Origin: Naegleria gruberi | Lineage: Eukaryota | Reading direction: 5' to 3' (one strand) | NCBI GenBank assembly: GCA_000004985.1 | Contig: GG738865.1 | Length of the DNA stretch: 64,000 bases | In this document: one piece after another, positions 3,833-61,455 of the stretch | Layout: every line of letters begins with the position of its first letter | Numbering within the stretch: position 1 is the stretch's first letter | The notes under the pieces: generated by a model | Told to the model about the DNA's origin: nothing | What the model saw: the letters and a program-made list of their open reading frames with translations, nothing else | Databases searched by the model: none | Position numbers and translations under genes: made by a program

Positions 3833-4924
3833 CTAAAAATCCTTAATTCCCTTCTCATTGCTGCCGTCACCATTCCTCAGATACATCATGACTGCAACAA
3901 ACAAAAGAATATTATGAGCATGTTTAACATCCACACAATTAATTTCCAAATACAAACTTCCATTACTTTTAAAAGCAATTAATTGAGCTCTCTTTCTTTG
4001 AATAATTCGTTCATAATCTGGAACTAGATCCGTTTTGTTTCCAATTAGTATACTTTCCACCTTTTCAGTTCCTTTGATATCATTAATATCATTCTCGGCT
4101 CTATCCAATGATTCTAAACGATTCAAATCAAACATTATCAAAGCAGTATTTGCATTCCTCTTGTATAAAGATGTATAAAAATAAGCAGGTTGATCCCATA
4201 ATTGCAAATCTCTAAGGATACCATCCCAAAGTTTGTAAATTTTGAATGTGTGTGCTGATGACACTACTCCAGGAGTGTAATCTCCAATTGATAAACTGTC
4301 AAGAGAGCTTTTCACAAAGCTCGTTTTTCCTACATGATGGTCACCCGTCATGATACATTTGAAAATTTTCTTATTGAACTCTAGGTTGTTTGAGGTGGAT
4401 ACAGAACTAGTGCTGGATGATAATAATCTCGACGAAAAATAAGAAAATAAATTGAATAAACTATTGGGAGATTCCTTTTTTGGTTCATCTTTTGGTTGTT
4501 CAATTTTTTTTGAAAGTATGTCAAAATAATATTCCACCAATTTCATTTCATCAAGAAACCAATTGGTTCTCTTTGGTTCGAATTTTTCCCATTCAAATCT
4601 TTGTCTTTCCCTTTTTTTAAATTCACTTCCTTCAAGAAATTCCACACATAATCCATAAATATGTTCCCTTAGCTTTAATTTTAGAAAATGGGTGAATAAT
4701 TTGTGTTCATTACAACTTTGAATATCTAACGAAGAATAGTTAATATTAGATAAAAATTCTGTAAATTGTTTGTAAATCTCCCGAAACGATAATTCTCTCC
4801 AGGATTCACAAACTCTTCCAATAGTGAAATATTGTTCTGGAATTGAAAAGAAATGATAAATCTCCAACAATAATTCTTCGGGAAGATTATTGATCGTGGC
4901 AACAATTTGTTGATTTTCTTTCAT
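3833..4924 (-). CDS. F-box domain fused to an atypical Rab-like small GTPase domain
   Basis: Real ATG at 4924 (MKENQQ…); the earlier M in the ORF track is a TTG. The N-terminus LPEELLLEIYHFFSIPEQYFTIGRVCESWRELS matches the F-box consensus. C-terminal GTPase motifs: P-loop GDHHVGKTS, switch-I Thr (DYTPGV) and an NKxD box (GNKTDL). DxxGQ is replaced by WDQPAYF, with no Gly or Gln, and the SAK box is degenerate (EINCVD). Confidence 0.7.
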   Translation of the reverse strand: MKENQQIVATINNLPEELLLEIYHFFSIPEQYFTIGRVCESWRELSFREIYKQFTEFLSNINYSSLDIQSCNEHKLFTHFLKLKLREHIYGLCVEFLEGSEFKKRERQRFEWEKFEPKRTNWFLDEMKLVEYYFDILSKKIEQPKDEPKKESPNSLFNLFSYFSSRLLSSSTSSVSTSNNLEFNKKIFKCIMTGDHHVGKTSFVKSSLDSLSIGDYTPGVVSSAHTFKIYKLWDGILRDLQLWDQPAYFYTSLYKRNANTALIMFDLNRLESLDRAENDINDIKGTEKVESILIGNKTDLVPDYERIIQRKRAQLIAFKSNGSLYLEINCVDVKHAHNILLFVAVMMYLRNGDGSNEKGIKDF

Positions 4925-4994: not shown

Positions 4995-6061
4995 TTAGAA
5001 AATGAATGGAACGAGGACCTTTCTGTTCTTTGGATAGAGTTCTCTACCGTCCTTACCGTCGAACAACTTCTTCAAAGCAACGTGCTTCTTAATAGCCCAT
5101 GGAAGCATTTGACCAGCACCACTGAGAGTGTACAAGAAACATGGGAGAGATTGAATCATGATTGAGAAGAAAATCCATTCCAAAATTTCAAAAGTATAAT
5201 TTGGACAAGTGACGTATTCAAAGAGGAATCCTCTTGGGATCTTTCTACCCTTTTCACCTGGCTTTCTCAAATTCTTCAAGATAATGTGACAAACAAAGTT
5301 ACCAAGCATGGACAAAACAACACCAGCAGCACCAATGTAAACTTGGAGATCAGATGGTGATTGATACTTTGGATGGATAGTAAAGTGAGCAACAAGATAA
5401 GCATAACCCCAATAATAAATACTATTCTTGAAAATGTTGAAAATTGGCATGGTATCAGTACCGAAAACGTGAACAAAGAGAGTTTCAAATTCTCTCTTGA
5501 TAAAGTGAGCCATGAAGAGAACAGTGGCGATCCTATTATTATTGTGTGATGGTGATGATGATCAGTTATTATCAATAAATTTCACATAATTATTAACAAA
5601 ATCAAAATTATTTAACACAATCATGATGTCATCATTAAAAATCACCATTAATTCAATATCATCATCGGATCAAATATAAAAACATACATTTGAGTATTGT
5701 TCAATTGAACAGGTTCTCCGTGAATGTAAGGAGCCAAAAAGTAGGCAAGTGGGAAAGTCAAGATTGGACCAAAATATTCAGTCAAAAAGACGGTTCTCCA
5801 AGCAATTTGAGGACCCAAATCCTTGAACATGACAACAGATCCGTCCTTCAAATCAGCAACAGGTCCATTATTTTCAGCAGCAACGATCATCTTTCCTCTT
5901 TGACCAGTAGTAGCATCCACATAGTAAAAAGCTTGTCTACTTGGATCAACTCTCTTTTGTTGATGATAGGCCTTCTTCAAATCAGTCAAGCTTGGTGCTT
6001 GCAAATCCAACTCGGCCAATTGCTTCTTGCCGGTTCTTGCATCAACGACGGAAATTTTCAT
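4995..6061 (-). CDS. TECR: very-long-chain enoyl-CoA reductase (TECR/Tsc13-like; N-terminal ubiquitin-like domain plus 3-oxo-5-alpha-steroid 4-dehydrogenase domain)
   Basis: Exon 1 6061..5688 has a UBL-like N-terminus (MKISVVDARTGKK…). A GTATGT…AATAATAG intron (5687..5533, 155 nt) joins with phase 2 to exon 2 5532..4995 (IATVLFMAHFIKREFETLFVH…FEYVTCPNYTFEILEWI…), the conserved steroid-5-alpha-reductase C-terminal region. Confidence 0.85.
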
Positions 6062-6271
6062 TTTTTTATTCGTTCGTTGTTTTTTTCTTCCCGCTTTTTT
6101 TGAATTTTCAATAAGTGAAACTTTTATTATGATGAATCATATTTAAATATTGTGTCAAAAGCTACCAATTTAATAATATATTATAATAATCCCATTGTTC
6201 TCAGTAAACTTTATTGAAATGTTGATTGGGTTATATAATAATTTAATTATTTTAAAACATTCAACAAAAAA

Positions 6272-7579
6272 ATGTCAAATACACCAACAAGCACATCATC
6301 AACAGATATCGGAAGAAGAAAACGATTGGGAGAGAGTAATATTGATGAGGAAGGATCGGAGTTGTTAGCTCCTACCATTGAAGAATTTCAAAGGTGGTGC
6401 TCCAAATTAAAAACTGTTGAAGATTTGTCAATCTTTCAAACATTTTGCAATGATTACTTGGATAAATTGATTCAAGAAAAGGAAGGAGAAGCCAAACAAC
6501 TTGATACAGAATTTGAACAAATTGAAGATGAGAAAGTTTCGGAGGAAGGTGCCTCTAATGATAGTGAATCAACTAGTAGTGAAGAGGATGAGAATGGAAA
6601 ACCAAAACAAACTACTCAAGAAATTATCAAATCAAATTTGAAAGTATTGCAAAAGATTAAACAATCCCTTCGTGATAGAATACCGAATAATGATGGTTAT
6701 GCTCCAAATGAAAGATTTTACTTCCCAGGTGAAGTTGCAGAGGAAACCAATCCAAATAGACAATTTGAAGGATATAGCAAGTACAACACAATTAATGTTG
6801 ATGGTTTCTTGTATGACAATGAAGAAATGAATGAAATGTTTAGAGGTGGATTGATTCCTGAATTTTATTGTGAAAAGTGTTGCTCAAGTAATCATGTCAA
6901 ACCTATGAATATCATTTCACATAGTTTTTCACTTGATGAATTGTCATTTATTTTCTCTCGTCAGTGTGTAAATAGAAACGCTTGGATTAGATCAAGATTA
7001 TTGGAAAAGATTAAGGTTTCATTAGGAATGAATCCAGCTATCAAAGACAAACAAGATCACAAATTATTATCAAAGAAGAACATGAGAGAAAATGGTATCG
7101 TTATGATGGATATCGGAAGTAGATTGGGATCTATTCTCTACTATTGTTACTTGTTTGTTGAACCTCTTTCAGTCAAACAATTAATTGGTGTGGAAATTAA
7201 TGAGTTCTTTGCCAATTTGCAAAAGGAAATGGTCAAACAGTACAAAATGGATGATAGAATTAGTATTGTAAATTCAGATATTATGAAAGAAATGGACTTG
7301 ATTCAAACATGTGATCTTTTAATTATGCACAATGTGTTTGAGTGGTTCTTTTCACATAAGGAAAATCAAGCAATTTGGAAAATTTTGAAATCTCAATTTC
7401 TCATTCGTAAGGGTCTTCGTATTGTTACTTGTCCTTCCATTCAACAATCCTTATTAGATGCTGGATTATCCGATATTCTTTCCATTGATGGATGGCTCAA
7501 GGAAATTCCACTTGCTTATCCACTCGATGACAATGACGAGGAAATGCACACTGAAATTCACCTCTATGAAGTTTTATAA
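6272..7579 (+). CDS. hypothetical protein with a possible class-I SAM-dependent methyltransferase-like C-terminal region
   Basis: Real ATG at 6272; 435 aa. The N-terminal half is acidic and S-rich. The C-terminus has VMMDIGSRLGS (motif I-like), an acidic GVEINE (post-I-like) and DLLIMHNVFEW (motif II-like). This is a weak similarity judged by eye. Confidence 0.4.
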   Translation: MSNTPTSTSSTDIGRRKRLGESNIDEEGSELLAPTIEEFQRWCSKLKTVEDLSIFQTFCNDYLDKLIQEKEGEAKQLDTEFEQIEDEKVSEEGASNDSESTSSEEDENGKPKQTTQEIIKSNLKVLQKIKQSLRDRIPNNDGYAPNERFYFPGEVAEETNPNRQFEGYSKYNTINVDGFLYDNEEMNEMFRGGLIPEFYCEKCCSSNHVKPMNIISHSFSLDELSFIFSRQCVNRNAWIRSRLLEKIKVSLGMNPAIKDKQDHKLLSKKNMRENGIVMMDIGSRLGSILYYCYLFVEPLSVKQLIGVEINEFFANLQKEMVKQYKMDDRISIVNSDIMKEMDLIQTCDLLIMHNVFEWFFSHKENQAIWKILKSQFLIRKGLRIVTCPSIQQSLLDAGLSDILSIDGWLKEIPLAYPLDDNDEEMHTEIHLYEVL

Positions 7580-8030: not shown

Positions 8031-10205
8031 TTACAAGTTCTTGTTACTCAATTCTAATGTGATTAAACCTCTAGCATAGGATACCCAGTAGATTCTATTC
8101 TTACTTTCAATGTAGAGGAATTCCTTCTTTGATTTGGCTAAGAAATTGTTGGCTATCACTCTCATACGAGTTTCCTTGGTTTGTTCAATGGCTTTAGTTC
8201 CAAGAATTGAGGCAGGTTTAGATTTAACAGTATTTGGATTCAAACTCTTTCTCTTTGATGAAATTGGTTGTGGAACAGAGAATTCATCATCGTCACTACT
8301 AACAACTTCAACATAGAAATCATCCAAAAGACCCTTATTTTCAGTAGTGAGGGTTGAGGTACTATCTCCAACATTGGTTCCATTATTTCTTACAGGAACT
8401 TCGCTAGTAACTCTTCTGTGAGCATTGGATAATCCTCCACCTGGTGAATTGGCAGGAATGTTTGGATTATTTTCAATATTGTTTGGACCAAACTTTTCTG
8501 GAACTTGAGTGAAATGTTCAACAATGGTAACATGTTCTGGATCCTTTTCATCTCTCATAATCTTAATAGAGTGATTGTAATCTGACAAGTTGAAATACTT
8601 CTTGTTGAATTGAATTCTGGTTACAGCTGGTTCTGCAGTTTCAATAAGTCTGAATTCCTTCTTGAAAGAGCTGATATCCTTTACAACGAGGACATTTTCA
8701 ACCAATTGAGGGAATTCCATTGATAATCTTCTAGAAGCACCCAACATTCCATATGTTGAGAACAATGAAGAGACATCATTTGGATTTAATTTTGGTTTCT
8801 CCTCAGCATTTGAAATATCTAAAAGTGATGGATCAACTCCAATGAAATTCATCATGTTTGCTTTTTCATTATTTTTGACATCAACTTGTGGATGAATGAC
8901 AAATTGGAGACGAAGTGGGCCAGTTTTTTGTTGTGGTCTATTGCTTTGAGTATTCATATTAGAAACCATATTCGAAAGTGAACTAAAGAAAGTATTGGAA
9001 TCATAACTCTTTCTCTTGGTCAATGGTTCACTATCAGCATCATCAGCAGAACTTGATCCTTGTCCAGAAACTCCACTAGATTGTTGAGAGGGAACATATT
9101 GATATGGTTTCTTCTTCTTTCCAATATATTCATTATTTGTGGTATTGTTATCATCCATATAAATTTCAATAACACCATTTCTGACAAAGCATTCCTTATC
9201 AACAATGTGACGATCAAACCAAACACCACTCATATACAATGAGCATGGTCTTCTGAGTGGATCCTTATCAAAGAATATCAAACAACGTTGATTAGAACGA
9301 TTGGTACGATCTTGGAAGCAATCTGAAACATATAATTGATCTCCAACAATATTATACAATTGATCAGAAACATCAAGCATAAAGTAATCAGATTCCTTGA
9401 TTATCTTTTGTGCAAACAATTGCAAGTCATGGAATCCATATTCAGGAGCATCTAATTCAGAACTTCTGTACTCTGCAGAGTCAAATAAATTCAACTCTCC
9501 ACTCTTCAAATATTCCAAGATGAGAGCAAAGTACTTTGGATTTCTATCAATAAAGTAGCATCCATTTTCATCCTTGATAAAACCCAAATGCTGATTTTCG
9601 TCCAACAATCTGGTAAAATAGTTTTCAAAGACTGTTGTTGAAGTGGACGAAACATTACTTAGTCTATTATTGTTTTGATTTGATGAAGAAGTAGTTCCTT
9701 CAGAAAAGCTCATTCTACTCTTACGATTGTGCAAATCAACAAAAGTTGAAAGTGAATTATAAGCCAAATTATTAGAATTGGTCAAATCACCACTACTTCC
9801 AGTACCACTATTACCTGCTGTTGTTGTTGTTGTTGGTGTAGAACCTTGAGGAGAGTTATTATTTGTTGTGGTTGTATTAGAAAGTGGTTGTTTTTGATGA
9901 GTTGTCTCCTGATGATTCAAGTAATTCTTCATGGCCAATTGGTAGGCTGTTGGAGAACGAATCTTTTGAGAGAAGGGCAAGCAATTGCCTGGAAAAACCA
10001 ACTCATTAATATTCGACTGATTAGCATTATTCTTATAAATTGCACTATGATGATATGAATTGAGAATAGTCTCACGAGTTGTATAGAGAATTTTACCTCC
10101 CACATTAAATTTGATCAATTGATGATAATGTGGAACTGGTGATGAAGAAGAACCACTACTACCACCACCTGACATTTGTTGTTGCTGTGCTTGCAGAGGA
10201 ATCAT
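8031..10205 (-). CDS. BTB/POZ (KCTD-type, BTB_2) domain protein with long low-complexity inserts
   Basis: The likely ATG is at 10205 (MIPLQAQQQQMSGGG…); the track start at 10232 is a TTG. The tetramerisation-type BTB motifs IKFNVGGKILYTTRETILNS and …CYFIDRNPKYFALILEYLKSGELNL are split by an N/T/S-rich insert. The C-terminal ~400 aa have no recognisable domain. Confidence 0.55.
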   Translation of the reverse strand: MIPLQAQQQQMSGGGSSGSSSSPVPHYHQLIKFNVGGKILYTTRETILNSYHHSAIYKNNANQSNINELVFPGNCLPFSQKIRSPTAYQLAMKNYLNHQETTHQKQPLSNTTTTNNNSPQGSTPTTTTTAGNSGTGSSGDLTNSNNLAYNSLSTFVDLHNRKSRMSFSEGTTSSSNQNNNRLSNVSSTSTTVFENYFTRLLDENQHLGFIKDENGCYFIDRNPKYFALILEYLKSGELNLFDSAEYRSSELDAPEYGFHDLQLFAQKIIKESDYFMLDVSDQLYNIVGDQLYVSDCFQDRTNRSNQRCLIFFDKDPLRRPCSLYMSGVWFDRHIVDKECFVRNGVIEIYMDDNNTTNNEYIGKKKKPYQYVPSQQSSGVSGQGSSSADDADSEPLTKRKSYDSNTFFSSLSNMVSNMNTQSNRPQQKTGPLRLQFVIHPQVDVKNNEKANMMNFIGVDPSLLDISNAEEKPKLNPNDVSSLFSTYGMLGASRRLSMEFPQLVENVLVVKDISSFKKEFRLIETAEPAVTRIQFNKKYFNLSDYNHSIKIMRDEKDPEHVTIVEHFTQVPEKFGPNNIENNPNIPANSPGGGLSNAHRRVTSEVPVRNNGTNVGDSTSTLTTENKGLLDDFYVEVVSSDDDEFSVPQPISSKRKSLNPNTVKSKPASILGTKAIEQTKETRMRVIANNFLAKSKKEFLYIESKNRIYWVSYARGLITLELSNKNL

Positions 10206-10676
10206 AATTTCCCAAAAGTTTAAATGTATCAAAACAACTGTAAATCAAAGAAGGCTTTCAACTTTTTTTAAATTTTTAAGAAAATAAAATTTGGATTGTT
10301 GCTGCTTGGAAAGGAGATGATGGATCACAACTAAAATTGACGAGAGAACCCATCACTGCCTATTGTTCTTTATTGTCACTTGAATGATATCTGGAGAAGG
10401 ATTGCATCCAAGTAAATTTACTGGGAGATGGGAACGCAGATAACAAATTGGTTCACTTAATCTTGGAGAGGAAAGTTGACCTCAATAATTGATATTTTGA
10501 ATCTGGTTTTTTTTTTCAAATGTGTCAACTGAGATGCATTCAAAGTTCATTGACCTGGCTTGAATGAGGAGAATATTCTGATATTCATTTCAATATTACA
10601 ATATTACAAAAATAGTTAATAAAGAATATTCACTTTTCCAAATTCAATCAATTTGATGAAAAATTAATTTAAAAAA

Positions 10677-12109
10677 ATGTTCAAACGTGTTGATAAGCTT
10701 TTATTTGACTTGGGTTATTGTTCCAAAGTCGGAATCAGGGTAAGTATTATTATTGCAAACTATTTAAATATCATATATTTAATAATATTTAGCATTTTCT
10801 TCGTAATAATGAATTAACCATTATGAAACAACAACCAGGAAGTAAAAAAGTAACCTATGAAAAGTTTACAGGAAGTAAGAAACAACTCCGACAAGTCATT
10901 GGTACAAATAATTTATTAATTAATGGACAACCTGTTCATACATCGGATCCTTTAATTATTGCTTTTGATAAACCTGTTGATTGGTTGTCTGATGGATTAG
11001 GTTCTTTATATGATTATCAACATTTTCAATATCATCAGAAATTGAAGAAGGGAATACAATTGGGAAGTGAAACACCTATTGAAATTTTGAATGAGGAAAA
11101 TGAAAATATGGAAGAAGAGGAATATGATGAGGAATATGATTCAGAACAATTGGAAGAAGTTTCACAAAGTTATTCTGTTCTTGATTTATTACCAAAGGAA
11201 TATCCATTGAGAAAACCAGGTTTTGATTCGATATTACCACTTCCAGATTCCATTGGTGGATTGACTGTTGTTACACAATTGTACACTCTTGTGAAAGCTT
11301 TTAGATCAGTAAGAGCTCCATGTAAGAGAGTATATAGAATTCAAACAAGAGATAAATTTACTGGTTTAGAGGACGAGGCCTTGTTGCATTTCAGATCTGA
11401 TATTAAGGATTCTTTGAAGAGGATTATTAATCCACCTGAATTTAATGTAATTGATGAGAGAAATAATATTGCTGAAATTACAATTTATGATTACAAACCT
11501 GATAAAATTCAAGAAATGATGTCCTCAATTAGACATCAACTTGTGGATGTTAAGAGAATTGGGTTGGGAGGTTTGACTTTGGATGATTTAAATCTTGAAC
11601 AACCAATAGTTAACGAGGAAGGACAAGTTGAAAATAAGGAAAAAACCTGGGTAAAACTCGACAATGACTTGTTAGAAAAATTAATGAGCTCAAAGAATGA
11701 AGTTGTTGGAAGATTGAGAGTTGAAAAGGATAAGGCTCAATTGAGAAGAGATGAGGAATTGAAGCAGTTTGCAACCTCTTCCAATATTTCATCACTTGAA
11801 TTTGCCAAACAAGATGACGAAGAGTTTGAAAAAGAAACTGTCATTACAGAAGAAATTTTGGGTGTAGATGAAGAATATGACCTTCCAAAGAGAAAGCCAG
11901 AAAAAATCGAAGGAAAATCAGTTAATATTAACCAAATGTCTAAAAACTTGGAATCTGTGGATATTGAGCTTGACGAAGCAGACTTGGAAGAAATGCAAAA
12001 ATGGGGTGAAGAAGAAGAGGCAGCATTTGAAGCAGAAAAGAGGAGAAAAGAAACAGCCTTCTCAAACAAGAAGGGAAAGGCAACAAAGAAGAATAAACGT
12101 AGAAACTAG
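10677..12109 (+). CDS. RsuA/RluB-family pseudouridine synthase-like protein with an S4 domain and an acidic/lysine-rich C-terminal tail
   Basis: Exon 1 10677..10740 (MFKRVDKLLFDLGYCSKVGIR). A GTAAGT intron 10741..10793 (53 nt, phase 1, verified) joins to exon 2 10794..12109. The N-terminus is S4-like (RVDKLL…GY.S…; …LINGQPV..DP). The core resembles RsuA (KRVYRIQTR; EITIYDYKPDKIQEMMSSIRHQLVDVKRIGLGGLTLD versus RsuA …RERIGGITLD). Where RsuA has the catalytic GRLDxDTTGL motif, this protein reads LPLPDSIGGLTVV. The tail is E/K-rich. Confidence 0.6.
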
Positions 12110-12122
12110 GTTGTATCAAAAT

Positions 12123-13192
12123 TTAGTGGAATGTTTCAATAATACCAGAAAATGTTTGGAAGGCATCATAGATGAAATAATTATTGAGTGGCTTTCTATC
12201 TCTAGTGATAATTGAGATGATTTCTTGACCAATTTCACCTCCAGCAATAGCACATACTGAATTAATTTCAGTATTAGCAAACTTACACAAGAATGTAGCA
12301 AATTCACTATCTATGAGGTCCAATTGCTTTAATGTAACATGAGGAATAACTTTTTGAACTGCTCCACTATTCTTGAATTCTATTAACTTTTCACCATCAT
12401 TTATCGAAGGAAGGCACTTATTGACTGATTGATAAATAAGTAAAAGCATGACACTCAACCATACTTTTGATAAATGTCTTTGCTTTGATAAATCATGTTG
12501 AAGGGATTTTTCCAATGAAACAAATGATTCAGTCTTTTCCACAATTTGTGGGGTTTTTCTAACACAATTAATAAATCATCTCATTAATAAACACTTACAT
12601 CTTGTAATTGAAATTGTCAAGATAGTCTTGGAATGAAAGAACAAATAATCCAAAACTAGTTGTTGAAATAAATAAAATGTTCTTTTGTCTACAAATATTA
12701 TTAACATTAATCTAAAGATGACAAGTGTTAAATAATTAAATTAAATTTCCACACACATACTTGAAGATCCAATGGTACATTATTAAGAATAACAAAATCA
12801 AATGCATCATAAAATTCACTTGGCTTTTCCGAAAGAGAACCTTCTTCAAAGGTGACTTTCATCAAAGGATTCAATTCTTGTAAATTAGGGAAACAAGCCT
12901 TGGCTCTATTTTCACCAACATCCGATTCTCTCACCAGGAAATTACATCCAAGATCCAAGTGATTTACTTTTTGATCGTCCATAATATGTACATGTCCAAC
13001 ACCAGACAAGACAATATTCTTGCAAATTTCCGTACACAATCCAGTCATTCCGTAAACCAAAACTCTAGTTCTCAACAATCTTCCTTGTGATTCCACTCCC
13101 CACAAACGAATTTGACGATCATAGATTTTAGCTTGCTCATCAGACAAGACTTGTTCCGTTCCACCATTAGCAGTATGTTCCACTCCCTCCAT
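12123..13192 (-). CDS. SUMO-activating enzyme subunit 1 (Aos1/SAE1, ThiF family), 3 exons
   Basis: Real ATG at 13192. Exon 1 contains YDRQIRLWGVESQGRLLRTRVLVYGMTGLCTEICKNIVLSGVG (ThiF/E1 nucleotide-binding fold). A GTATGT intron ~12760..12710 leads to exon 2 (INVNNICRQKNILFISTTSFGLFVLSF…), which matches the SAE1 …EICRK…FF.GDVFG segment. A GTAAGT intron ~12598..12559 (40 nt) leads to exon 3, ending at 12123. Junction phases were checked. Confidence 0.8.
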
Positions 13193-13426: not shown

Positions 13427-14533
13427 ATGGAGACTGTTTGTGTTACAGGAGCTAATGGATTTGTAGGATCACACATTGTCAGGGAATTATTGGCAATGGG
13501 ACAATACAAAGTTTGTGGAACCATCCGATACGATCCGCACAGCTCCGATCCACTGATACAATGTAAATTCATTCATCTGATGAATTTTCCAAATGCAAAG
13601 GAAAATCTGGAATTATTTAGAGCTGATGTGATGGAGGAAGGATCATTCGATAGTATCATTTCGAAATGTAATTATGTGATTCATACAGCATGTCCTTTCT
13701 ATTTGACTCCCACTGTGAATGATACGCACAATGCTGAAATTAAGTTATTGGATCCTGCAGTGAAGGGAACGAGAAATGTGTTAAACTCTGTGGAGAAATA
13801 TAGAGATAGAGTGAAGAGGGTGATTGTTACGAGTAGTACTGGGGCTTTAATTGGATTTGCTGATAGAGTATTTGGAAAGGTTTATTATGAGACGGATTGG
13901 AATGAGAAATCATCTCTGATTAGTAATCCATTTGCATATAGCAAAACTATGGCTGAGAAGGAAGCATGGAAATGGTATCAGGAAATGATTGATAAATATT
14001 CGAATGAAAGAAATGGAAATATACCTGTGGAGGTAGTGAGCTTGAATCCTGTTCTAATTATTGGACCTATTCTTCAAGTGGATAGAGTGAAAATTGGTGG
14101 AATTGGAGAGCTCAATTTCAGTAACAAGTTAATTTTCAATCACATGATGAAATCAAAGATAATTCCAGGAGATGATGGTAAAACAACAAAGGCAGACGGT
14201 TTCAGTATTGTCGATGTTAGAGATGTGGCAAAAGCTCATGTACTGGCTCTCACTTGCCCCAATGTTAGTGGTGAACGATTCGTCCTAGTGAGTGAAAAAT
14301 ATCAATGGATTTCTATGAGCAGAGCCATCTCTAAACAATTTCCTCAAATCACAACCATTCCCCACATTATCAAGGATGAAATGGGAGAAGAGGAGGGCCT
14401 GTACAAAATGTTGAACTTTTCCAACTCGAAATTCCAACAATATTTTGGATATGGAGATTTCATTCCAATTGAAAAGTGCATTCTCGACACTACAGAATGC
14501 TTTATAAGCAATCAATTCGACCAACTGTTGTAA
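13427..14533 (+). CDS. NAD(P)-dependent epimerase/dehydratase family protein (cinnamoyl-CoA/dihydroflavonol reductase-like)
   Basis: Real ATG at 13427. An N-terminal Rossmann motif VCVTGANGFVGSHIVRELL is followed by a YxxxK-type extended-SDR architecture. 368 aa in a single exon. Confidence 0.8.
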   Translation: METVCVTGANGFVGSHIVRELLAMGQYKVCGTIRYDPHSSDPLIQCKFIHLMNFPNAKENLELFRADVMEEGSFDSIISKCNYVIHTACPFYLTPTVNDTHNAEIKLLDPAVKGTRNVLNSVEKYRDRVKRVIVTSSTGALIGFADRVFGKVYYETDWNEKSSLISNPFAYSKTMAEKEAWKWYQEMIDKYSNERNGNIPVEVVSLNPVLIIGPILQVDRVKIGGIGELNFSNKLIFNHMMKSKIIPGDDGKTTKADGFSIVDVRDVAKAHVLALTCPNVSGERFVLVSEKYQWISMSRAISKQFPQITTIPHIIKDEMGEEEGLYKMLNFSNSKFQQYFGYGDFIPIEKCILDTTECFISNQFDQLL

Positions 14534-61384: not shown

Positions 61385-61455
61385 GCATTAGTAGTGTAAC
61401 GGTATCATACCAGCCTTCCAAGCTGGTGACCCGGGTTCGACTCCCGGCTAATGCA
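61385..61455 (+). tRNA. tRNA-Gly(UCC): tRNA-Gly (anticodon UCC)
   Basis: GCATTAGTAGTGTAACGGTATCATACCAGCCTTCCAAGCTGGTGACCCGGGTTCGACTCCCGGCTAATGCA. The 7-bp acceptor stem GCATTAG/CTAATGC pairs perfectly. The D-arm carries an A-box (TAGTGTAACGG). The anticodon loop is CTTCCAA, so TCC. The T-arm carries the B-box GGTTCGACTCC. Discriminator A; no encoded CCA; no intron. Near-identical to canonical eukaryotic tRNA-Gly-TCC. Confidence 0.9.

Follow-up and report, generated by a model that had tools for sequence, protein, structure and literature searches.

Besides their catalysis, pseudouridine synthases are increasingly suspected of helping ribosomes to assemble by acting as RNA chaperones, and in enzymes that are active this non-catalytic role is difficult to tell apart from the catalytic one. 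RsuA is the 16S ribosomal RNA (rRNA) pseudouridine-516 synthase, and the subject of this work is a gene for an RsuA-like protein with altered catalytic motifs, found in a stretch of 64,000 nucleotides from Naegleria gruberi (GenBank assembly GCA_000004985.1, contig GG738865.1; 33.5% GC), referred to below as the window. The concept of a dead pseudouridine synthase is already known and has precedents. Human RPUSD3 lacks the catalytic Asp and is regarded as a pseudoenzyme (PMC12710931), Trypanosoma brucei mt-LAF3 carrying D211A complements (bioRxiv 10.1101/2023.02.23.529727), and Arabidopsis SVR1 (AtRSUA1), a eukaryotic member of the RsuA family whose biological role is independent of the catalytic Asp, still complements its mutant when that residue is mutated (PMC8910892). 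Escherichia coli RsuA itself is described in PMC7356742 as binding a 30S assembly intermediate. RPUSD3, mt-LAF3 and the plant RluA proteins of the XXHRLG type follow the concept proposed here for the window protein, in which the fold is kept while the catalytic motif has degenerated or can be dispensed with, and the protein works in the biogenesis of rRNA or ribosomes (PMC12710931, PMC8910892, bioRxiv 10.1101/2023.02.23.529727).

All of these differ from the window protein in other respects. SVR1 is a chloroplast protein with a transit peptide and retains XXGRLD. RPUSD3, the XXHRLG-type proteins and mt-LAF3 are organellar members of the RluA family (HRLD motif) and usually alter one or two motif residues, whereas in the clade to which the window protein belongs motifs II and III were rewritten together and then fixed. 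We put at roughly 0.7 the probability that the product of the gene is descended from an RsuA-type enzyme, has lost catalytic activity and has been retained as a non-catalytic rRNA-binding or ribosome-biogenesis factor. A literature search found no paper on a dead RsuA-type clade with rewritten motifs II and III, and to our knowledge such a clade, with the two motifs rewritten in coordination and present in free-living heteroloboseans, is undescribed.

Relationship of the window protein to RsuA

The window protein (459 amino acids, aa) is collinear with E. coli and Haemophilus influenzae RsuA (PDB 1KSK, 1VIO) and with the RluB, RluE and RluF family (TIGR00093, PF00849 plus PF01479). When a Naegleria/Willaertia profile was compared by hhalign with E. 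coli RsuA and 21 canonical relatives, the match had a probability of 99.85% and E 7.7e-31 over 227 columns covering both the S4 and the catalytic domain (the E. coli sequence used is identical to the RsuA residues in PDB 1KSK chain A, residues 4-234). Both hhalign and MAFFT place LPLPDSIGGL on RsuA G99-RLDIDTTGL108, KRVYRIQTR on E129-KTYLVTLE137 and KRIGLGGLTLD on H201-RERIGGITLD211, thereby reproducing the three residue alignments quoted in an earlier interpretation made from the letters alone (the sequence-only reading). Structural and pocket residues are kept at K81-P82, L171, G177-L178, T182, Y202, M263, R276 and G280 (K67-P68, L101, G107-L108, T112, Y132, M189, R202 and G206 in RsuA numbering). 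The window protein differs from RsuA in having LPLP for GRLD, DYKPDKIQEM for EGRYHQ[IV]RRM, an insertion of 60 aa and a charged tail of 130 aa, in falling below the PF00849 and TIGR00093 thresholds, and in being eukaryotic and encoded by an intron-bearing gene.

Single-sequence scans of the window protein matched neither PF00849 nor S4 in Pfam, and in NCBIfam did not match TIGR00093 but only NF008097 RsuA (12.9 bits, E 0.065); the gathering score of PF00849 is 26.8 bits and the cut-off of TIGR00093 109.3 bits. When PDB sequences were searched, neither phmmer nor a 5-sequence profile gave a significant match; the only matches, to MAF1 and ATG16, were due to chance. When five orthologs were run against the family models one reached TIGR00093 at E 9.6e-4 and one reached S4 at E 0.062, the latter being the best S4 value in the Naegleria/Willaertia set, which is subthreshold for Pfam S4; the clade member P0005 lies above the gathering score (23.7 versus 22.8). 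With TIGR00093, close relatives match at E 8e-9 to 3.5e-6, but scores in the clade stay below the curated thresholds (PF00849 best 19.4 bits; TIGR00093 27-35 bits in relatives). The lack of a significant PF00849 hit, which the sequence-only reading had offered as grounds for dropping the assignment, is therefore literally what was found, yet it is too strict a yardstick, as profile-profile and transitive searches succeed where single-sequence scans fail and it is these that make the homology secure.

The transitive evidence came from the core profile (A2), with which an exhaustive HMMER search gave 67 proteins at E <= 1e-3 that split into a degenerate-motif set (E 1e-46 to about 3e-4) and a canonical set (E 1e-15 to 1e-3). 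Four of the canonical matches were scanned: all four passed PF00849, two matched S4 and three exceeded the TIGR00093 subfamily cut-off. With the NCBIfam models the best equivalog for the nearest canonical relatives was RsuA, and for four clade members scanned RsuA was the best or only equivalog wherever one was found. A word-indexed search with the clade profile matched bacterial PF00849 plus PF01479 proteins (E down to 1e-12) and gave no further named clade members. On these sequence comparisons the window protein is a homolog and descendant of an RsuA-type pseudouridine synthase.

AlphaFold2 with a 66-sequence alignment gave a model with a predicted local distance difference test score (pLDDT) of 89.1 and a predicted template modelling score of 0.84, in which only aa 106-129 are disordered. 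The structures most like it are just the four enzymes of the RsuA family that have been solved (Foldseek, 1ksk, E 7e-10), the predicted core fold being closest to RsuA, RluB, RluE and RluF. The S4 region has pLDDT 93-97 and an S4-like pattern of helices and strands, and the canonical C-terminal element is present (KTWVKLDNDLLEKLMSS, matching GEYRPLTEEEIASVV) and modelled with confidence. Taken with the profile match, these fold matches bear out the conserved S4 domain and RsuA core that the sequence-only reading had claimed.

Catalytic residues replaced across a clade

The motif II Asp is universally required in pseudouridine synthases, and a basic residue of motif III forms a salt bridge to it (PMC12710931, PMC8910892). 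The Arg two residues before the Asp shows absolute conservation in the RsuA, RluA and TruA families, and a role in base flipping or substrate stabilization has been proposed for it (PMC8910892; PMC12710931). Through motif II the window protein aligns for about 45 residues without a gap (YSVLDLLPKEYPLRKPGFDSILPLPDSIGGLTVVTQ versus xIYDLLPxxFxxRxPxLSxxGRLDKxxSGLxxLTQ) and L169-P170-L171-P172 sit at E. coli RsuA G99-R100-L101-D102, so that the catalytic Asp102 is replaced by Pro172 and Arg100 by Pro170. The loss of Arg and Asp from a rewritten catalytic loop, as noted in the sequence-only reading, is thus upheld by the alignment and by the column statistics, and no gap placement yields a conserved Asp in canonical context. 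In motif III, where DYKPDKIQEM stands opposite canonical EGRYHQ[IV]RRM (EGRYHQVKRM in E. coli), the replacements are G181 to Y255, H184 to D258, Q185 to K259, K187 to Q261 and R188 to E262.

Among canonical relatives G99, R100, D102 and G181 are each present in 45/45, Q185 in 44/45 and R188 in 42/45; the window protein and nearly every other clade member carry different residues at all six positions. The Arg column holds Pro in 16 of the 18 clade members, and the Asp column holds Pro, Ser, Gln, Thr, Ala or Leu, with Asp in a single member (1/18). The new motif III is itself highly conserved, D, P and D of the clade consensus DY[KR]PD each being found in 13/13 and Y in 12/13. Two further positions are shared by clade and canonical enzymes: the Y202 column is Tyr in 16/16 and 45/45, respectively, and the R276 column Arg in 13/13 and 45/45. 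The active-site Tyr (RsuA Y132) is the residue that stacks on the flipped base.

The idea that Asp173 is the catalytic Asp moved by one position was considered and rejected: without any gap this residue falls opposite the one that follows GRLD, and its column holds Asp in only 6/18 clade members and P, H, K, Q, E, N, T or I in the others. The one clade member with Asp in the catalytic column, P0010 (from a 44-kb Logan contig), is divergent; it reads FPLDPDQSGL, lacks the Arg and has DSKPDN in motif III. In two eukaryotic relatives of otherwise canonical appearance, P0045 and P0047, the catalytic loop has been damaged independently, one reading ARLHEN with EEKYDQVRKM and the other GGALERE with an insertion, and from these sequences the Asp may have been lost more than once among eukaryotic RsuA-like proteins.

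The degenerate-motif proteins are monophyletic in a neighbour-joining tree, with a long stem and a bootstrap of 100/100 (custom distance/neighbour-joining routine; SVR1 is not among its sequences). The named members are Naegleria lovaniensis, Willaertia magna and Acrasis kona, all Heterolobosea, the others being metagenomic or SRA-assembled sequences. Residues fixed specifically in the clade are P170, P197, R200, L213, P236, E243, D254, Y255, P257, D258 and R268, and the replacement motifs xPLx and DY[KR]PD are likewise fixed in it. That the clade has fixed residues of its own means purifying selection on a new function and not decay.

The nearest canonical neighbours in the tree are from Amoebozoa (Balamuthia, Dictyostelium, Cavenderia, Acytostelium, Tieghemostelium, Dermamoeba and Pyxidicula), and the canonical amoebozoan proteins are 42-46% identical to bacterial 16S pseudouridine-516 synthases. 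These RsuA-like proteins (Cavenderia fasciculata DFA_02145, Dictyostelium spp., Acytostelium, a Balamuthia mandrillaris 'pseudouridine synthase') share with the window protein the R[VL]D[KR]LLxNLGYC start of the S4 domain 2-9 residues from Met1, YDLLPxxFxxRxP before motif II, F[TS]G.E after motif IIa and a long charged C-terminal tail. They differ from it in keeping GRLDKW and EGRYHQ[IV]RRM and in passing PF00849, and are presumably active, whereas the window protein lies on the long stem branch with its catalytic residues replaced. The canonical proteins of Dictyostelia, Balamuthia and others are apparently active enzymes, and their presence in Amoebozoa conflicts with the statement in a review that eukaryotes lack RsuA homologs (PMC12710931). 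We also observed that six such amoebozoan proteins (P0016, P0025, P0027, P0038, P0049 and P0109) have no N-terminal extension and have charged tails of 50-300 aa.

RsuA-type proteins, both active-looking and dead, are thus documented in Amoebozoa and Heterolobosea; their genes at present carry the label 'hypothetical protein' or the misleading one 'RNA pseudouridine synthase'. A deeply conserved clade in which the catalytic residues are gone and the S4 domain and fold are kept would isolate the non-catalytic function, as a natural separation-of-function allele, and could reveal the surface features that this function needs.

Proposed function, site of action and competing explanations

The sequence-only reading had proposed a pseudo-enzyme that retains an S4 domain for RNA binding. 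The profile match, the fold matches and the six replaced residues support this, and suggest a protein that is probably inactive and probably still binds RNA. On this proposal uridine isomerization would no longer be possible, and the protein would instead serve as an RNA chaperone or placeholder that binds and holds a helix of rRNA, perhaps an element like the helix 18 recognized by RsuA, while the ribosome is assembled, with the acidic loop and charged tail as possible added interaction or regulatory modules.

Several points weigh against an inactive factor of this kind, or against placing it outside organelles. AlphaFold with the five orthologs alone gave pLDDT 46 and an unusable model; the good model needed canonical enzymes in the alignment, so the evidence from the fold depends on the homology seen in the sequences. 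Some ligand- or base-binding chemistry could still be supported by the Tyr that is kept, by the hydrophobic residues of the pocket and by Asp258, which is newly invariant. A search with the amoebozoan canonical profile for an active Naegleria paralog gave, among the best 120 matches, amoebozoan proteins and then a swamping excess of bacterial RsuA, none of the matches being heterolobosean. The divergent member P0010 has a basic, presequence-like N-terminal extension of 68 aa (MLSKSFKFKLQFGIQKRLFST), and it is possible from this that the protein acts in mitochondria in at least some lineages; organelle import of the window protein without a presequence is possible too.

The sequence-only reading had likened the protein to organellar rRNA assembly factors, and a dead synthase imported into the mitochondrion to assist rRNA or mitoribosome assembly, like mt-LAF3 or RPUSD3, is an explanation that we regard as unlikely for the window protein, with some weight still attached to it. 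All well-studied pseudouridine synthase assembly factors with dead or dispensable activity are organellar (PMC12710931; bioRxiv 10.1101/2023.02.23.529727; SVR1 PMC8910892). The bacterial-type ancestry, visible in the identity of the amoebozoan relatives to bacterial enzymes, would also fit an organellar rRNA substrate, and the extension of P0010 also counts in favour of this explanation. Against this, the S4 fold of the window protein begins at residue 2-4, which leaves no room for a presequence, and an in-frame TAA lies four codons 5' of the ATG (context AAAAAAATG). N. lovaniensis, Acrasis and P0005 likewise lack an N-terminal extension, there being only 2-5 residues before the S4 core in these proteins and the window protein and 4-9 in the canonical proteins of Amoebozoa. 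In a separate sub-clade of eukaryotic sequences the N-terminus is extended by 26-112 aa that are rich in Ala/Arg/Ser and typical of organellar presequences. A K/R-rich C-terminal patch with an E/K-rich tail, as present here, occurs in many nucleolar factors. From the start of the S4 fold and this patch we favour action in the nucleolus, nucleus or cytosol over import by a cleavable presequence.

A pocket that is still in use has to be considered in two forms. The uridine pocket may have been re-tooled and not have died, with the clade-invariant Asp258 as a relocated catalytic carboxylate giving new chemistry or specificity, or with the retained Tyr202 still serving to capture a flipped-out base, in a non-catalytic reader or clamp for a specific U or pseudouridine in rRNA; this seems to us quite improbable. 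Slightly more doubtful still is a pseudouridine synthase or related isomerase of altered specificity with a rewired active site in which another carboxylate (Asp173, Asp254 or Asp258) has taken over. The conservation of D254 and D258 (13/13 in the clade), of the stacking Tyr202 and of pocket residues L171, G177 and L178 would suit an enzyme, and the new motifs are conserved to the degree expected of an active site. However, Asp173 fails as a candidate on its column statistics, Asp254 is the conservative counterpart of E180 (42/45 in canonical enzymes), and the base-flipping Arg and both basic residues of motif III have gone along with the Asp. No pseudouridine synthase family is known to act without the motif II Asp (PMC12710931, PMC8910892), and two prolines in the catalytic loop would be unlikely to keep its geometry.

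That the gene is a functionless, decaying relic or a misprediction is scarcely credible. Such a gene might be expected to look as this one does in single-sequence Pfam and PDB searches, which gave no significant match, and in its annotation, which is only 'hypothetical protein' in N. lovaniensis and Willaertia. The 459-codon frame is nevertheless intact, its canonical intron is kept in three genomes, the protein is 46-57% identical over its whole length to those of Willaertia and N. lovaniensis (the window protein itself is absent from the protein database searched, where the best match is that of N. lovaniensis at 57%), and more than 100 positions are invariant among five orthologs. The clade-specific fixed residues reach Acrasis and beyond, and the ThiF neighbour described below is syntenic. 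Intact frame, conserved intron, syntenic neighbour, clade bootstrap and clade-invariant residues together argue for selection rather than decay, and the pseudogene explanation was rejected on the five-ortholog conservation, the clade-fixed residues and the conserved intron.

Gene structure, added segments and neighbouring genes

The features of the gene and of its surroundings are collected in Table 1.

Table 1. Coordinates of the RsuA-like gene, its parts and other features of the window
Feature	Position	Strand	Remarks
Exon 1	10677..10739	+	63 nucleotides, 21 codons from ATG at 10677; encodes MFKRVDKLLFDLGYCSKVGIR; first S4 strand and helix
Intron	10740..10792	+	53 nucleotides, phase 0, GTAAGT...TTTAG
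Exon 2	10793..12109	+	438 codons and TAG stop (12107-12109); collinear with four orthologs over whole length
S4-like RNA-binding domain (putative)	10677..10945	+	aa 1-72, spans the intron; hhalign aa 2-79 versus RsuA 1-65
Pseudouridine-synthase core fold, RsuA type (predicted)	10955..11689	+	aa 76-87 and 148-320, split by the insertion
Lineage-specific insertion	10991..11170	+	60 aa, aa 88-147, between KP (81-82) and YSVLDLLP; missing from canonical RsuA (hhalign)
Degenerate motif II LPLPDSIGGLTVVT	11234..11275	+	aa 169-182; ungapped alignment; Pro172 codon CCA at 11243-11245
Motif IIa KRVYRIQTR	11324..11350	+	aa 199-207; active-site Tyr Y202 (RsuA Y132) kept
Rewritten motif III ITIYDYKPDKIQEM	11477..11518	+	aa 250-263; canonical counterpart LTISEGRYHQVKRM
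Conserved C-terminal core strand KRIGLGGLTLD	11552..11584	+	aa 275-285; R276 and G280 are RsuA R202 and G206
Mixed-charge E/K-rich tail	11717..12106	+	130 aa, aa 330-459; ends in basic patch KRRKETAFSNKKGKATKKNKRRN
BTB_2 open reading frame	8031..10232	-	733 aa; BTB_2 (potassium-channel tetramerization type) domain, E 2e-12
ThiF-family gene	12123..13192	-	SAE1/Aos1-like, IYDRQIRLWG; at least 2 exons
NAD-dependent epimerase/dehydratase family gene	13427..14533	+	368 aa; PF01370, E 4.6e-18
tRNA-Gly(TCC)	61385..61455	+	Sole tRNA in the window by ARAGORN

The ends of the gene given in the sequence-only reading are correct, as is the 5' exon that it had found by splicing by hand: the ortholog N-termini align across the junction, where MFKRVDKLLFDLGYCSKVGIR|HFLRNNELT matches MTLSRRIDKLLFELGYCSKIGLR|RFLSNHELT of N. 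lovaniensis (P0001) and RIDRILLDLGYCSRVGLKRFL of W. magna (P0004). The same exon 1 is present in the N. lovaniensis locus L001 and in a third Naegleria-like locus on Logan contig L002, and in both the intron follows the same codon (after G[IL]R), so that with the window three genomes share it. The GTAAGT donor had been recognized correctly and stands, but the intron is of phase 0 and not, as had been stated, of phase 1. The Logan gene call P0003 begins within the intron and omits exon 1, which is found upstream (L002 about 4783..4851, 5001..6443). The Willaertia model P0004 has an acidic, Pro-rich N-terminal extension of 225 aa that may be a fused or mispredicted exon.

The insertion, a feature absent from the earlier account, consists of a conserved helix (GLGSLYDYQHFQYHQKLKK) followed by an acidic disordered loop of 40 aa (aa 108-147; 40% D+E, no K or R), with pLDDT below 50 at aa 106-129. 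The C-terminal extension had been described as a long acidic, E/K-rich tail; the E/K-rich tail is present, but it is not simply acidic, being of mixed charge (27% D+E and 21% K+R in aa 330-459) with a basic extreme C-terminus (48% K+R in the last 25 residues). In the first AlphaFold run the tail was modelled as helices with low confidence. Comparable tails are found in the amoebozoan canonical relatives (50-300 aa) and in Acrasis, P0005 and N. lovaniensis (about 130-200 aa). Within the tail a Trp-centred acidic motif (about 11990..12025, aa 421-431) recurs from Naegleria to Willaertia as EEMQKWGEEEE, ELQRWNEE, ELENWANEE and EIETWDENE; its W425 is invariant in five orthologs, and the motif may serve for docking.

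Downstream, the ThiF-family gene lies tail-to-tail with the RsuA-like gene. The same arrangement is found in N. lovaniensis (L001 6774-8154) and on Logan contig L002, and this micro-synteny, with a downstream neighbour common to all three, indicates that the RsuA-like genes are positional orthologs. Upstream, the BTB_2 domain lies amid Thr/Asn/Ser/Gln low-complexity runs, and this open reading frame is not the same as the upstream neighbour in N. lovaniensis.

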